This document shows positions 36,001 through 51,000 of a stretch of 51,284 nt of DNA, piece by piece. Made by a program: the position numbers. The stretch comes from Gemmatimonadota bacterium (lineage in GTDB: Bacteria > Gemmatimonadota > Gemmatimonadetes > Gemmatimonadales > Gemmatimonadaceae), in contig JAZJZK010000019.1 of NCBI GenBank assembly GCA_040389905.1, positions 1 to 51,284 on the forward strand, given 5' to 3'. Within the stretch, counting starts at the first letter, position 1. Every line of letters starts with the position of its first letter.

Positions 36001-39000
36001 GATCCGCTTCTTGAGGCAGATGTAGCCCACGTTGATGCGCGCCAGGGCGTTCGCCGGCTCGCGCATCAGCACCTGCTGGAATTGCATGAGTGCTTCGTCG
36101 TACTTCTCCTGGAGCATCTGTGCCCAACCGAGGAGCGACACGGCCTGCGGGTCGTTCGGCACGAGCTGCAATGCCTTGGTCAGGCTCTCTTCAGCCCCTG
36201 GGTAGTCGCCGAGGGAAATCCGGCTCCAGCCCTTTTCGATGAACGTCGACGCGCCGATGTGATCGACGACGACGGGCCGCTCGGCGCTGAAGGCGGGCGC
36301 CAGATTCGCCTGCAACCCCTTCCAGCGCTCGACGAGCGCTTTCGCCTCATCCTTGAGCGCATTGAGATCCGCGAGATCCACCTCGAGCGCCTTGCCGAGG
36401 GCAATCAGGTCACCACGAATGGAGTCGCGGTCTGCCGCCGCATTGGGCGCATCAAGGCGCGCCGTCAGCGCAGCAATCCGTGCCCGGTGGGCGTCCACGA
36501 TCTCACCCATGTGCCAGGGCCTCCGCTCCGGTATGCTGGAGCGCGATGCGCTCGGTCGATGTGAGCAGCTCGTCGACGTTGAGATAGATGACGAGACGCG
36601 AGCCGTGACGGACGATGCCTTTCAGGTACTCGCCGGCGAGCCCATGGAACATCTTCGGCGGCGGCTGCACGGCGGCGGGATCGAAGGAAGCGACTTCGGT
36701 GACCGAGTCCACGACCAGCGCGACCCATTCTCCACTGACGTTGAGGATGAGGATGCGCGTGTCATTGCCCGCATCGCGGGCGGGGAGCTCGAGCCGGCGG
36801 CGCAGATTCACCACCGGCACGACGCGGCCCTGGTAGTCCATGACGCCTTCGATGTACGGCGGGGTGTCCGGCACCGGTGTGGGTGCCGCGTAACGAAGCA
36901 CGCGCTCCACCGCCTGCACGTCCGCGGCGAAGTGATCGTCGCCAAGTCGGAACGCCACCAGCTTGTCTTTCTCGCTCATGCAATCTCCAGTAGAACCGCG
37001 GTCTGGCACGCCGAAACGAGCGCAGCGCCCGACAGCACCGTCACCAATGCGTCGCCCACCTGCGCGACACCCAGAACGAGCCCTTCATGCACCTCGACAC
37101 CCGGCGAACGGCGCACGTCGCGCATGTCGATGCTGATGGCATCCTCCACATCGTCGATGAGCACACCGACGAGCGCGCGTCCCTCTCGAAAGATGAGCAC
37201 TGCGTCGCGCAATGCGAGAGGCAACCCGAGCGCACCATGCGGTGAATAGACGGGCGTCAGGGCGCCGCGAACGGATACGACGCCGAGCATGGCCGGCGGC
37301 ATTTCCGGAACATGATGAATGACGGGGAGATCGATGACCTCCTCGACGTCCGACAGCGCAAGCGCGAAGCGTTCGCTGCCGACGCGGAACATCAGCAGGT
37401 CGGCGGTGCGCTTGATGGGGGCTGGTGGCGCAACACGCGGGGGCGGCGCTTCGCGAACCTTCTTCGCGAACGCGACGACGGGAACGGCGGGAGGTACAAC
37501 GACGGGAGGTGCAGACCCCTCGACTTCGCTCGGGGTGACAACCGCTTCGCCCGGGGTGACGACAACTTCGGGAACAGCGTGCGGTGCAGACCCCTCGACT
37601 TCGCTCGGGGTGACAACCGCTTCGCTCGGGGTGACAGCCAGTTCGCTATACCGAATCCGTTTTTTCTTCATTCCTGATCGTCCGCCACGTCGAACATCAG
37701 TTCCCCATCGATCGACGCCAGTTTGCGCATCGCACCCACGAAGAGCGCCTGCGTCGCGAGGGTATTGATCCGACGCGGAATTCCGGCGCTCCGCGCCGCC
37801 AGCGCCGTAAACGCGTCATCCGTGAAAATACGCACCCCGTTCCACCCGGCGACGGTGAGCCGATGCTCGACATAGCCGCGCACTTCGTCCGCCTCCATCG
37901 GCTCGACGTGGAAGCGCAGGCTCACCCGCTGATCGATCTGCGGTCGCTTTCGAATGCGATCGCGCAACTCCGGCTGGCCGAGCAGGATGACGTGCAGGTG
38001 CTTGTCCTGCCGGCCCTCGTAGTTGCTGAACAGGCGGATCTCCTCCAGCAAGGAAGGACTCGCGAGCTGCGCCTCATCCACGATCAACACCGGCCTCCGC
38101 CCCGCGTCATGCAACTCACCGAGACGCACGCCGAGCGCCTCGACCAAGGCGAGCTTGCCGCGTGGTGCCTTGTCCAGCCCGACACCGGCCGCAACGGTCG
38201 CGAGGAGCTGGGTCGGAGTGACCTTGGGGTACGACAAGACGATGACGTCGCACGATGTTCCTGACAGACGATCGGCCAACGCACGCGCCAGCATCGTCTT
38301 GCCGCAGCCGATTTCGCCAGTAATGAGCGACAGCCCGCCGCGTAGGTCCGTCGCGTCGTACAGCAGCCGCGCGTATCCCTCTGCGAACGTGGGCGATTGA
38401 TACACGAAATCCGGATCGGGCGTGTTCGCAAAGGCCCGGCGGGAGAGCTTCCAGTGCGCTTCGATCATCCGAGGGCGCTCCGCCGCGTGACGAGCAACTG
38501 GAGAATGGACGGCGCGACGTCCCCAAGGTTGCACACGCGATCGGCGCCGGCACGCTGGAAGGCCGCCAGCGGCATTCCGTATATGGTCGACGTCTCCCTG
38601 TCTTGAACGACGCCACTGCCACCAGCGTCCCGGATGGCGTGGAGCCCTTCTGATCCGTCGCGCCCCATCCCCGTCAGCACCACGCCGATCGACTGACGCC
38701 CGAATGCGGCGGCCACCGAAGTGAAAAGCGGGTCCGCAGCTGGGCGTACACCCCACATGGTGGGCCCTTCATCCAATACAATCTGGTGCGCTCCAGCAGA
38801 CTTGTGACGGACGCGCATGTGTTGGCCGCCTGGCGCCAGATAGACGCGATTCGCCTGCACGGCCTCTCCTTCCTGCGCTTCCGCCACGCGGAGGTGGCTC
38901 ATCGAGTCCAGACGGCTGGCGAGGCTGCGCGTGAAGCCAGCCGGCATATGCTGTACGACGAAGACGGCCGCATCGAGGTCCGCCGGCAAGTTCGGAATCA

Positions 39001-48000: not shown

Positions 48001-51000
48001 GTGCGATGGGTCGAATCGCAGAATACGCCGGAACGCCTTCATCGCGTCGCGCGGATTCCCCAACATCAAGAGCGTTTCGCCGAGCGCCAACAGGGCCTCG
48101 AAATGATAGGGATCGCGTTCGAGCAAGGCGATCAACTGCTCCAGGGCAGACTCGGCGCGGCCGGCCGCGCGACGCATGGACGCGAGTTCGAGCGTGGCTT
48201 CCGCGTACGTGGGCACGGCATCCAACGCCGCTTCCAATTCGTTTTCCGCTTCCCGCAACTGCCCCTTCGCGCGCAGCAGCCGCGCGAGCTGGAAGCGCAC
48301 GACGGCAAACTCACTATCGAGCTCCAACGCATGCCGATACGCCGTCATCGCCCCTTCGTTGTCACCGAGCGCGCGCGCGATGTCGCCGATGCGCTGATGC
48401 ACGTCAGGGCGGTGTGGCGCCAGCTTGCGCGCCGACTCGAGCGCGTCGAGCGCGCCGGCGGGATTCCCCGTATCTGCGCGCGCCCCTGCGACGAGCATGA
48501 CCGCCTCGACCATACCTGGCTGTGCAGCGGCGATCTCTTCGGCGATCGGAAGTGACTCGCGGGCGCGCCCCATCGCCAGAAGCGCCAGCGCTTCGCCAAT
48601 ACGTGGGCGTATCGCGCTGGGATCGGCGCTCCGTGCCTCACGGTAGCGCTCGATGGCTTCGCCGTGGACGCCCTGTCGCGCGTAGATGTCGCCGAGCAGC
48701 GTGTAGCCCTCCGCGGGCGACGCACCGCGCGACAGGGCGCGACTTACCTCTGCGGCCGCACGGTCGACGAGCCCCATGCCGAGATAGTCGACGGCCATGG
48801 CGTATGGATCGCTCGAGTCCTTCGCTGCACCCGACGCGGCGTCCGCCGCAGCCTCCGTCGGCGCCAGCGAGGTGAAGAGCGTATCGAGCACCGCGGAGTC
48901 GAACGAAAAATCCTCCACGGAATCATCGAGGCGGTGCACGGCGCCGAGATCGGGCTTGATCGAGAGGTCAGGATCCTCGTACTCGAGATCGATCGCAAGC
49001 TCGAACTTCTGCGCGACGTAATACGGGTCGAGCTCGAGCGCGCGCTTGGTCTCGCGGAGCGCACCTTCGAAATCACCGAGATGTGAGAGCGCAAAGCTCA
49101 GGTTGTAATGCGCCTCGGCCAGATCGGGGTTGGATTGCACGGCGCGCGCGAATGCATTGCGCGCATCCTCGAATCGCCGGAGCTCGTTGAGCACGAGACC
49201 GACGCCGTTCCACGCGGCCGCATCCTCGGGCACGCGCTCGAGGACGCTCCGGTACGCTTCGAGCGCAAGCTGAAATCGCTTTCCCTTCGCGAGCAGCAAC
49301 GCCAGATTCAATCGCGCTTTGACGAAGCCAGGCTGCGCTTTTAGCGCGTCCCAGAATGCCTCGATGGCGCCGTCCGTTTCTCCACAGTGATAGAGCGCGA
49401 CTCCGAGGTTGTTGAGCGCGAGTGAATAGCCGGGCTCCGCCTGCGTCGCGCGCCGGTAACTGTCGCGCGCCTCGGGAAAATTTCCGTCCTGATGGAGCGC
49501 GACGCCCCGTTCGTTCCAGAGCTTTGGGCTGATTGGCGCGAGCGCGAGCAGTTCGTCGTACAGCGCGACGGCCGCCTTTGGCTCTCGGCGCAGCAAATGG
49601 ACTTCCGCCATCGCTTGAAGGACGAGCGGACGATCTTCTCCCCGTTCGAGCGCCTTCGCATACTCGCGCAGGGCTTCGCCGTAATACCCCTTTTGCCGGA
49701 AGGCCAGACCGAGGTTGAACTGCGCGAGTTGTCCTTCGGCCAGCGATTCCATGGGCACGCGCATCGAGCCGCGGCTCGGCGTGTCCGTCGTTCTCCGCTG
49801 CGCCCGTCGCTCGTCGATCGCGAGATTCGCCTGCGCACGCGAGAGTGTGGGGTTGAGCTGGATCGCTCGTCTCGTGACGTCGCGCGCCTCTTCATGCAAG
49901 CCGAGGTCGCCGAGCACGAAGCCCATCAGGTAATAGGCATCCGGATTGGACGGATTGAGCTCGATGGCGCGGCGCAAGGCGGACAGGGCACCTTCGTTCA
50001 CGCCGCGATTGTACAGCACCTCGCCGATGTAGAAGTTGACGACCGACGATGACGGGTCGAGCGTCAGCGCGCGTTCGAGGTAGCCCAGCGCCTTATCCAG
50101 GTCCCCGTTCGTGCGCTCGGCCAGTGCGAGCTGCACCATGGCTCCGGTGTCACCAGGGTGATATCGAAGCAACTCGCCGAATGACTCCGCGGCTTCTGCC
50201 GCCTGACCGAGCAAGGCGTGGATCCGGCCGAGTTCCCAACGTGTATCGCGGTCGTCGGGTTTTGCGCGGAGGCGCTCCATGAGCTCGCCGACGCGTTTGT
50301 CGTAATACCCTGTGTTGAAGTACGCGATCTCGAGGTTGCGCTGGGCCACCTGCATCTTCGCGTCCAGCTCCAACGCGCGCATGAAGGCGGCAACGGACTC
50401 CTCATAGAGTCCCTTGTTGTAATAGAGAACGCCCAGGTTGTTGTGCGCGCCGGCATCCGATGGATCGATGCGCCGCGCGAACGACCGGAGTACGTCGCGA
50501 TCCCGTTCAGATGTGAGAGGCGTATCCATTTTACTGGACCCGACTCCGCGGCAAGAGGCGAACGGACTTTACCGCAGAGGGCGCAGAGGAGCAGAGGACC
50601 GCAGAGGAAAAGCGGAAAAGCCAAATGGCCTCCTGGCTCTTTCTGGTCTCCTTTGCGTTCCTCTGCTCCTCTGCGCCCTCTGCGGTCAAAACGAGACGCA
50701 TCGCCGACTGAAACAGACTGCCTCCTACGGACATACCTACGCGACCCGCACTGCCCGAAGAATGGCCTGCAACGACGCAGGATCGGGAAGCAACAAGAAG
50801 AATCCGCGCAGTTTCTCCCCCACATCATGCATGAAGAATTCGCTCTCGACGCAGAAGACATAGTCCTTGTCGGAGCCGAATTGCAGGTAGGCCGTCGTGA
50901 GCACCGCGTCGCTCATGTCGATCGCCAGTGACGGTGGCGATGGGAGGAGCATCATCCCCATGAAATCGCTCAACGCGTTCATGTACGCGCTGCTGAGGAT

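Follow-up and report, generated by a model that had tools for sequence, protein, structure and literature searches.

Introduction

To our knowledge, the known DnaA-clade ATPases act on DNA replication or transposition, and one of them, Hda, carries an N-terminal beta-clamp-binding motif. Gemmatimonadota, abundant bacteria of soil and water, have barely been studied. In the Myxococcus xanthus pathway that runs from Frz through MglA/MglB and SgmX/FrzS/SopA to type IVa pili, FrzS is described as a beacon in which one part docks to TPRs and a coiled coil directs it to the pole (available portions of PMC9811614, PMC11580455 and PMC7519303). Roadblock proteins figure as predicted NTPase regulators in the accessible part of PMC4316618, and the available text of 10.1101/2021.06.11.447907 reports that PATAN binds PilB1 and PilC in Synechocystis and that MglA/MglB genes occur near PATAN genes.

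In this study, we examined a window of 51,284 nucleotides (contig JAZJZK010000019.1 of a Gemmatimonadota assembly, genome G000), in which this barely studied phylum keeps a DnaA-clade ATPase in a signalling operon. All features given below lie on its (-) strand. A literature search found no paper describing the operon or the archaeal rod proteins discussed with it.

Results

Architecture of the tandem protein

Reading frame, domain matches, AF2 modelling and Foldseek identify the gene at 42469..44391 as encoding a tandem DnaA-derived adaptor/ATPase of 640 aa. In a domain search PF00308 matched in two stretches (E 1e-111) and PF08299 (domain IV) was absent. The AF2 model shows two AAA+ domains joined by a helical unit (mean pLDDT 85), their relative placement not being fixed because pTM is 0.48. 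Domain I is missing as well, the AAA+ module beginning at once behind a start codon 2 nt past the mglA stop. The description in the genome-wide survey's note, two DnaA-type AAA+ modules with a helical linker and neither domain I nor IV, is thus borne out. Module 1 (residues 4-225, 43717..44382) and module 2 (residues 365-597, 42601..43299) are identical at 78 of 214 residues, and both have the fold and catalytic motifs of DnaA domain III, structures of which are the top Foldseek matches (8bv3: TM 0.92, 42% identity). Databases name the protein DnaA, and it passes the TIGR00362 cut-off through summing its two modules. An 834-aa reading (TTG at 44973) was rejected, because it runs into mglA and because homologues have as their first codon the Met that follows the mglA stop. 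In our trees, all of them quick trees, modules 1 and 2 form clades apart from canonical DnaA and branch outside the host's own DnaA.

Among 45 diverse rows, 44 have an intact Walker A-like motif in each of the two modules. That catalytic motifs are kept in both modules, as the note had it, is correct, but they are not kept equally: the sensor I Asp is present in 25/27 module-1 rows (93%) and 12/27 module-2 rows (44%). Residue roles for comparing the two faces were taken from the available part of PMC6669920. Module 1 has a complete nucleotide pocket and lacks equivalents of B. subtilis R206, H231, I190, K222 and N187. Module 2, with its pocket face and sensor I eroded and the E183 equivalent lost, keeps the finger face (equivalents of R202, R206 and R264) together with I190 and E228. 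Of the 27 rows for each module, 93% of those for module 2 and 7% of those for module 1 have the R206 equivalent; for the F218 equivalent the shares are 22% and 78%, respectively. The ssDNA/DnaA-trio set (N187, I190, I193, R202, K222, E228) is mostly lost in module 1 and partly kept in module 2, N187 being lost in both (0/54 rows). Module 1 keeps its own arginine finger in 23/27 rows, and the face asymmetry is therefore incomplete. With the ATP pocket retained in module 1 and the arginine-finger face in module 2, the sequences suggest an ATP-closed dimer.

Conserved motifs and reduced forms

Two short motifs lie outside the modules. Motif A (residues 249-266, 43594..43647) is an amphipathic helix with the pattern EFxxFLxD, and motif B (residues 617-640, 42472..42543) is the C-terminal DxEKxVWxWPDxxxRxIEELR, which overlaps the ribosome-binding site of the next gene. 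Conservation of motif B is 0.64 against 0.35 for the spacer; modelled alone in AF2 it has a pLDDT <50. Its W628 is invariant in 78/78 rows. The first Glu codon of its terminal EE is GAG in 41/41 cases compared with 78% elsewhere, indicating that part of the motif is held by the next gene's Shine-Dalgarno site; IEELR is nevertheless retained in G110 despite a 105-bp insertion before the next start.

The gene slot is also occupied by one-module forms and by mini-proteins of 60-86 aa without ATPase (6/84 order genomes), so that a protein of this family may have 2, 1 or 0 ATPase modules. The minis retain only motif A (the EFxxF helix) and motif B (the WxWP..R.IEE tail), and their W61 is invariant (86/86). 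A mini profile recovered 1002 of 1274 candidates, and the 14 that were read are complete proteins of 70-81 aa. No usable PDB match was found for the minis. Minis persist without mglA (G048) and without the whole Mgl block (G068, G070), and in G032 and G043 roadblocks and mglA are kept with the slot filled by a mini alone. Independent origins were not demonstrated by a quick-tree test (p-AU 0.58 for a single origin), and the minis may share one origin.

Operon and predicted partner

Upstream of the tandem gene lie an MglA-type small GTPase (44394..45008; a second mglA is found elsewhere in the genome), an MglB-like roadblock (45036..45509; NF052242, below cut-off), a stand-alone roadblock/LC7 protein (45506..45880), a TPR-roadblock fusion (45877..46692), a second PATAN(DUF4388)-TPR protein (46685..47818), an all-TPR protein of 902 aa (47821..50529) and a cheC truncated by the contig end (50737..51284). 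The 5' part of cheC lies on the end of contig C30, where its start overlaps the end of the window contig, behind cheW-cheY-cheA. Downstream follow the PATAN(DUF4388)-MshEN-TPR protein (40850..42469), cheR (40031..40849), cheD (39534..40034), cheB (38465..39544), an ExeA-like AAA ATPase (37668..38468; TIGR03015 below cut-off, patchy among relatives), a second cheW (36976..37671), a cheW (36503..37009) and a 278-aa TPR protein (35674..36510), then peptidase MA and TPR genes, and finally mraW and a penicillin-binding-protein gene, the start of a division cluster. The layout, cheW-Y-A-C, TPR, PATAN, roadblock, MglA, tandem gene, PATAN-TPR and cheR-D-B, agrees with the gene order claimed earlier and adds to it the ExeA-like ATPase between cheB and the two cheW, the upstream cheC and the genes on C30. 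An MglA-type GTPase beside a roadblock MglB is thus present, with family models below curated cut-offs; as to orthologues of SgmX, FrzS or RomR/RomX, the family models gave one weak match, to NF052243 (19 bits against a cut-off of 1800). A divIVA-like gene was recognised by eye upstream of the operon.

The 539-aa PATAN-MshEN-TPR protein is the predicted partner of the tandem protein, to whose gene its own is translationally coupled (TAATG). It matches PF14332 (DUF4388/PATAN) with an E of 4e-36 and NF053729 above cut-off. A complex model, built from custom alignments for the mini and partner of G032 rather than for the window's pair, scored 0.85, the best of three controls reaching 0.28. In calibration, 116 of 157 solved complexes attained this mark, as did 2 of 215 mismatched pairs, counts that apply only roughly because of the custom alignments. 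Runs share at least 77% of contacts, with a partner pLDDT of at least 52, and the contacts coincide exactly with motifs A and B, which lie in the TPR groove of the partner (corresponding in the window to residues 284-465, 41075..41620). Interface columns are more conserved than the remaining TPR columns (0.63 vs 0.56; permutation p 0.03). The PATAN domain was discarded as the motif-binding site, all confident contacts falling in the TPR region. PEX5 and Hop, whose TPR domains bind C-terminal peptides, are among the PDB matches; because the PDB holds such proteins, the model's pass may reflect likeness to them. Taken together, the modelling indicates that motifs A and B probably grip the PATAN-TPR protein encoded next door.

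Distribution among relatives

The tandem form was found in 73 of 84 order genomes, and the family also in 5 of 21 genomes of other orders in the class (one unpublished); it is thus widespread in the order, as reported before, but not confined to it. The PATAN-TPR gene is directly downstream in 73/73 tandem loci, as well as in the 6/6 mini and 3/3 single-module loci read, which upholds the fixed position that the survey's note gave it. Contrary to the same note, mglA is not fixed upstream: an operon-type match stands directly upstream in 66/73 tandem loci, and of the seven exceptions the four read comprise two with divergent mglA (G033, G034), one split over contigs (G007) and one, G112, with neither mglA nor che genes upstream of its tandem form. 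MglA was rejected as an obligate partner, the adaptor and PATAN-TPR pair persisting where mglA is lost. The tandem ATPase is also retained without a roadblock match (G099, G063) and with cheR, cheD and cheB missing at the locus (G095), and the most trimmed operons (G068, G070) read cheY-cheA-cheC, mini, PATAN-TPR, cheR, cheB. Since mglA, roadblocks or che genes are lost in some loci while the motif pair and PATAN-TPR gene stay, the invariant element is the two short motifs plus adjacency to the PATAN-TPR gene, not the double ATPase or the MglA link. PilM is present in 81/84 order genomes and FlhA in 20/84, flagella being mostly absent. As PilM also occurs in G081, G085 and G087, which lack the operon, pili do not specifically co-occur with it.

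Archaeal rod proteins

The helical linker unit (residues 267-360, 43312..43593; Wx3G[YF]...DP) is repeated 4-10 times in archaeal rod proteins, such as RLF66718.1 (Thermoplasmata labels), followed by a DnaA module without domain IV. A fold search with the linker returned generic helical rods (EzrA, Z 6.4, rmsd 7.2, 112 aligned; Ebh, Z 6.1, rmsd 3.3, 91 aligned), and the Atlas gave no usable match. Six of eight archaeal modules nest among canonical DnaAs, apart from modules 1 and 2; a common origin of archaeal and gemmatimonad ATPase modules was thus not supported in this quick tree, whose set was chosen for likeness to the archaeal module. For the archaeal N-terminal domain, hhalign gave a probability of 1% against PATAN, and the Atlas leads were DUF2226 (0.88) and PatA_N (0.84). 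A metagenome scan for the archaeal neighbourhood yielded DnaA-module matches only, and the frames read were canonical DnaA.

Replication context

PF08299 was not found in G000 by a search whose control was positive in 10 of 14 known genomes. The dnaA-dnaN region of G073, of the same genus, had no blastn match and dnaN no tblastn match in G000, an assembly that is 85% complete, in line with the survey's view of the missing canonical dnaA as an assembly gap. Its placing of canonical domain IV elsewhere in relatives also stands, PF08299 being present in 119/120 of them, with canonical dnaA elsewhere in those genomes. The window holds no DnaA-box cluster (4 one-mismatch boxes in 51 kb), and the tandem gene does not lie at dnaA-dnaN/oriC. 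Re-use outside replication, one half of the proposal that a replication ATPase serves a polarity/chemosensory system, is supported by the absence of domains I and IV, the canonical dnaA found elsewhere in relatives, the separate clades and the lack of a box cluster; as to the other half, neither the double ATPase nor the MglA link is invariant, and the polarity/chemosensory function derives from gene order.

Discussion

From the observed architecture, gene order, module series and residue asymmetry we infer that the protein serves not as an initiator but as a scaffold, switched by ATP, for an effector that regulates pili, a reading that we hold to be evenly poised between right and wrong. The PATAN-MshEN-TPR protein, co-translated with the adaptor, is predicted to receive motif A's helix and motif B's tail in its TPR groove. 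The arginine-finger face of module 2 would close on the ATP pocket of module 1, within a chain or between chains, and closure would draw the two motifs towards each other or gather the partner at a single site. By analogy, the partner would follow the Che pathway and MglA in the signalling chain, sense c-di-GMP via MshEN and, through its PATAN domain, act on the motor of the type IVa pilus; the operon as a whole likely steers pilus movement. The minis would then be a constitutive, motor-free version of the adaptor. A wider version, which we regard as possible and rather doubtful, is that of an undescribed class of signalling ATPase, in which the DnaA filament interface has become a two-module ATP clamp gating a bipartite TPR-docking motif. 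Such a clamp would be a nucleotide-timed polar beacon joining Che, MglA and c-di-GMP; it would belong to a wider cross-domain family that also takes in the rods of Thermoplasmata, and module 2 may still give it contact with canonical DnaA or ssDNA, by which surface behaviour would be tied to the cell cycle.

Module 2 retains I190 (I/V in 22/27), R202 (26/27), R206, E228 (27/27) and partly K222 (15/27), which are ssDNA or filament residues of DnaA (available parts of PMC6669920 and PMC10721633), and the operon lies just upstream of mraW and the penicillin-binding-protein gene and downstream of the divIVA-like gene. Both points would fit modules that assemble together with canonical DnaA into its filament, cap that filament or bind ssDNA via module 2, with Che, MglA and c-di-GMP tuning initiation and the TPR partner sequestering the protein. 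We consider such cell-cycle coupling unlikely, however, given that domains I and IV are absent, N187 has disappeared from both modules and E183 from module 2, the modules, which branch outside the host's own DnaA, can be dispensed with where the motifs cannot, and boxes are as scarce as described. That the tandem protein might be the genome's real replication initiator is scarcely credible: the database names, the summed TIGR00362 score and the failure to find another dnaA in G000 are set against the missing domain IV, the incomplete assembly that lacks the dnaA-dnaN region, and a canonical domain IV in nearly every relative.

The remaining alternatives leave replication aside. Three roadblock genes per one GTPase, together with conserved catalytic residues in the modules, would suit an NTPase partner of the Mgl module, the extra roadblocks, as predicted NTPase regulators, controlling the ATPase, or the ATPase remodelling complexes of MglA and MglB while the TPR protein serves as its substrate adaptor; yet G099 and G063 keep the tandem ATPase without a roadblock match, G032 and G043 keep roadblocks and mglA with a mini only, and G112 has the tandem form without Mgl genes upstream, all of which makes this improbable. 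The docking could also be right and the output not pili: the adaptor would tether CheR/CheB/CheD or set the position of the chemoreceptor array, so that a DnaA-type ATPase would take on a task of the ParA/ParC kind. The make-up of the most trimmed operons and the nine MCP matches in G000 (none in the window) favour this improbable alternative, but the pair is still there in G112, whose locus has no che genes, G095 keeps its tandem form with cheR, cheD and cheB missing at the locus, and the characterised PATAN output, in the portions available of the work cited above, is the pilus motor. Finally, the codon bias at EE that goes with the Shine-Dalgarno site, together with the long branches and the degenerate modules seen in several lineages, might indicate a decaying dnaA duplicate whose tail is kept just for translational coupling of the next gene. 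This is very hard to reconcile with a motif A kept far from the junction, the invariant W628 and W61, the intact Walker A-like motifs of both modules and the IEELR of G110.

The scaffold reading has practical implications. Natural forms with two, one or no modules separate the docking function from the motor function and offer a comparison for what ATP adds, and a peptide of 60-73 aa with one TPR domain makes a minimal testable pair. Many database entries naming this protein DnaA would need correction. The linker unit, in turn, forms a bridge between a bacterial polarity system and DnaA fusions of archaea that have so far gone unexplained.

Comparison with known systems

With DnaA domain III (B. 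subtilis 8bv3/8btg, T. maritima 2z4r, A. aeolicus 2hcb), the tandem protein shares the AAA+ fold, Walker A/B, arginine finger and sensor II, and in part the filament interface. It differs from DnaA in having two modules per chain without domains I and IV, in the loss of N187, in splitting the faces between modules, in its extra helical unit and putative docking motifs, and in that its modules are dispensable. Like the tandem protein, Hda is a DnaA-clade AAA+ protein without domain IV, but the tandem protein falls below the Hda threshold (TIGR03420, 167.5 bits against a cut-off of 194.8; other Hda models far below), is much nearer to DnaA by sequence (E 1e-55 vs 6e-06), lacks an N-terminal arm ahead of the AAA+ module, is tandem and sits in a signalling operon. 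The archaeal rods have in common with it the helical unit followed by a domain-IV-less DnaA module; they carry one ATPase module and zinc ribbons, and no motif A or B was seen in them.

The M. xanthus type IVa pilus pathway likewise has chemosensory input, MglA with roadblocks and a TPR effector. Here, in contrast, a single operon holds the genes, those for CheC and CheD included, the effector has PATAN and MshEN domains, and short motifs and DnaA modules make up the putative beacon; FrzS, in the available text, docks with a pseudo-receiver instead. Cyanobacterial PatA-type regulators (PixE, PixG) share the PATAN (DUF4388) domain in chemosensory operons; the partner described here differs from them in having no receiver domain, an MshEN insert with TPRs, and a DnaA-derived protein as its own predicted partner.

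Results

The gene at 42469-44391 (minus strand) encodes a 640-aa product with two PF00308 stretches, modules 1 and 2, which are identical at 78 of 214 residues, and a domain search of this tandem protein found no PF08299 (domain IV). In the AF2 model from a 78-row alignment (mean pLDDT 85, but pTM 0.48) a helical linker accompanies two AAA+ domains, and the top structural matches are DnaA domain III. This bears out the genome-wide survey's description of two DnaA-type AAA+ modules lacking domain IV; since domains I and IV are absent, the protein lies outside the DnaA family, and it lies outside Hda as well.

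The tandem gene starts 2 nt past the mglA stop, and its own stop overlaps the next start (TAATG). The operon runs cheC, TPR902, PATAN-TPR, TPR-roadblock, roadblock, mglB, mglA, tandem gene, PATAN-MshEN-TPR (the partner, 40850-42469, minus strand), cheR, cheD, cheB, ExeA-like ATPase, cheW, cheW, TPR278; its head, cheW-cheY-cheA, ends contig C30 of the same genome. The ExeA-like gene (37668-38468, between cheB and cheW) is found in the relatives G073 and G016; most other loci that we read lack it. Only one long gap occurs in the operon, the 207 bp separating cheC from the TPR gene (50530-50736), and it holds short repeated purine-rich units. Two cell-division neighbourhoods flank the operon (C30 74306-86084; window 27945-31175): what we take, by eye, to be a yggS-divIVA-pnp-ileS-dksA-like block, and mraW with a PBP gene.

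We sampled 120 relatives of at least 90% completeness, which are kin rather than independent samples. Within the order (n = 84), 73 carry the tandem form (including unpublished G053 and three cut by contig ends), one a single module, six a mini-protein, and four neither ATPase nor PATAN-TPR gene. The CheA dimerisation domain is absent too from both of the four that were checked for it. Outside the order but within the class, 5 of 21 genomes are carriers: two have the tandem form, two a single module and one, unpublished G093, a degenerate tandem. We found no PATAN-TPR gene in the 15 genomes of other classes. In every single-module form the module present is module 1. The survey had the gene fixed between mglA and a DUF4388-TPR gene; the downstream half stands, as a PATAN-TPR gene directly follows in 73 of 73 loci with listed coordinates, while operon-type mglA directly precedes in only 66. 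That count excludes G074 and G106, split across contigs, whose tails precede the PATAN-TPR gene. Nearly all order genomes have a second mglB-mglA locus (L110, L111, L121; contig C7 near 262.3 kb in the window's genome). At L113 and L114 (G033, G034) the tandem ATPase is intact, while the operon's mglA has diverged strongly (36-42% identity) and the 902-aa TPR protein is shortened to about 380 aa. A third PATAN-MshEN gene, encoding as many as about 970 aa, occurs in four genomes of family f2/f3 (L129-L132), where the gene before it is a different one, probably for an outer-membrane protein.

In G032, G043, G048, G068, G070 and G110 the slot encodes 60-86 aa without ATPase, comprising only helix A (EFxxFxxD) and tail B (WxWP..R.IEE). 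A profile of these minis matched 1002 of 1274 candidates, a total that may include fragments of long forms; the best 120 of the 1002 are 69-81 aa, and all 14 inspected are complete, the six with names being Gemmatimonadaceae. By tree analysis the minis may have arisen once or twice. Among the mini genomes, G048 has lost mglA; from G068 and G070 the entire TPR-PATAN-roadblock-mglA block is gone, and cheC, mini, PATAN-TPR, cheR and cheB remain. In five of the six mini genomes (L103, L104, L123, L124, L125) the partner's MshEN insert is also lost, exactly; G110 retains it, and there a 15-bp tandem repeat, present about five times, makes up a tiny ORF that separates the mini gene from the PATAN-TPR start (L105:10988-11092).

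Tail B of the full protein is more conserved than the preceding spacer (0.64 vs 0.35) yet disordered when modelled alone by AF2, the pattern expected of a binding motif. Docking was modelled on the G032 pair, not on the window's own. The mini with full-length partner scored 0.85 (best of three controls, 0.28). In calibration, 116 of 157 solved complexes attained that mark, as did 2 of 215 mismatched pairs; these figures are only rough for the alignments we used. Runs shared at least 77% of contacts, with partner pLDDT of at least 52. Predicted contacts join mini residues 17-25 and 55-73, that is both motifs, to TPR residues 230-411, and none involves the PATAN domain. Conservation is slightly higher in interface columns than in the remaining TPR columns (0.63 vs 0.56, p 0.03). 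As TPR receptors for C-terminal peptides are among the solved structures, likeness to them may contribute to the score. The terminal EE of motif B also serves as the Shine-Dalgarno site of the following gene (GAG as first codon in 41/41 Glu cases vs 78% elsewhere), which does not account for the motif's Trp and Arg or for any of motif A.

A quick tree separates module 1, module 2 and canonical DnaA into three groups (support 96-97), so the duplication is old. In labelling the catalytic motifs and in dividing the interface residues between two faces we drew partly on general background. Residues are numbered as in B. subtilis DnaA by way of the 8btg alignment (27 rows per module), with roles from passages of PMC6669920 and PMC10721633. 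Module 1 keeps a full pocket (K157 27, D214 27, D248 25, R313 26, F218 21) and has lost R206, H231, I190, K222 and N187; in module 2 the finger face is retained (R202 26, R206 25, R264 25, L269 26), as are I/V190 (22) and E228 (27), with erosion at D248 (12), F218 (6), E183 (1) and N187 (0). Retention of catalytic motifs in both modules, as first noted, holds, though unequally. The simplest reading of these residues would have the finger of module 2 close on the ATP of module 1; as module 1 keeps its own finger (23/27), longer oligomers are possible.

The linker profile gave 445 matches among 1.84 billion representatives, including long proteins with the unit repeated (P0242-P0258, P0313, P0332, P0382, P0401-P0406), labelled, where at all, mostly as archaeal (Thermoplasmata, Euryarchaeota, Bathyarchaeia, Thermoproteota), with one Methylacidiphilaceae bacterium. 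Of the 32 that we scanned, six have a DnaA module lacking domain IV at their end, mostly together with zinc ribbons; DUF835 occurs in two of the 32 and a KaiC domain in one. A profile of 90 archaeal units ranked the tandem gene first of 23,464 frames of the window's genome (E 8e-4; next 0.36), a test only partly independent, since it was the bacterial profile that had led to the archaeal proteins in the first place. The unit's fold is a generic helical rod. A common ATPase origin is unsupported: in the tree, six of the eight archaeal modules lie inside the canonical DnaAs and not beside modules 1 and 2.

Discussion

We put at about even odds that the tandem protein is an ATP-switched adaptor: motifs A and B would hold the PATAN-MshEN-TPR effector, the DnaA pair would time or cluster that hold, and the effector, downstream of Che and MglA, would act on type IVa pili. 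Architecture, gene order, the series of module forms and the residue asymmetry between the modules are direct observations; the docking is predicted; ATP switching and pilus output we infer. Flagella cannot be the general output, as FlhA occurs in only 20 of 84 order genomes and was not found in that of the window or G073. Pili fit, with PilM in 81 of 84, but PilM also occurs in genomes that lack the operon. Passages of 10.1101/2021.06.11.447907 report PATAN binding to PilB1 and PilC in Synechocystis. The partner scores above the NCBIfam cut-off for a c-di-GMP motif.

Coupling to replication is unlikely, though module 2's remaining ssDNA residues leave room for a DNA-linked role. We hold equally improbable a remodeller tied to roadblocks or MglA. 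Positioning of the chemosensory array seems a shade less probable still. G112 keeps the tandem and PATAN-TPR genes with no mgl or che genes upstream.

A decaying passenger is very improbable. That the protein is a true replication initiator is scarcely credible; domain IV is present in 119 of 120 relatives, and the whole dnaA-dnaN region was not found in the window's own assembly (85% complete). Four relatives (G003, G006, G009, G015) each have a second DnaA-like match and no match to the PATAN-TPR gene.

Within the literature searched (listings and opening parts of abstracts, with subscription journals mostly outside coverage), no description of the tandem protein, minis or operon appeared; the main texts, supplements aside, of PMC4316618 (DnaA, DUF4388, Gemmatimonas) and PMC5847659 (PATAN, DUF2226) do not mention the terms given. 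The tandem protein and its operon are real, undescribed in that literature and, at system level, a variant; the ATPase adaptor is possibly of a new kind. In M. xanthus, according to passages of PMC9811614, PMC11580455 and PMC7519303, MglA-GTP and FrzS recruit the TPR protein SgmX and pili are activated. Under the adaptor reading, the tandem protein would work like a FrzS-type beacon, but one made of DnaA parts.
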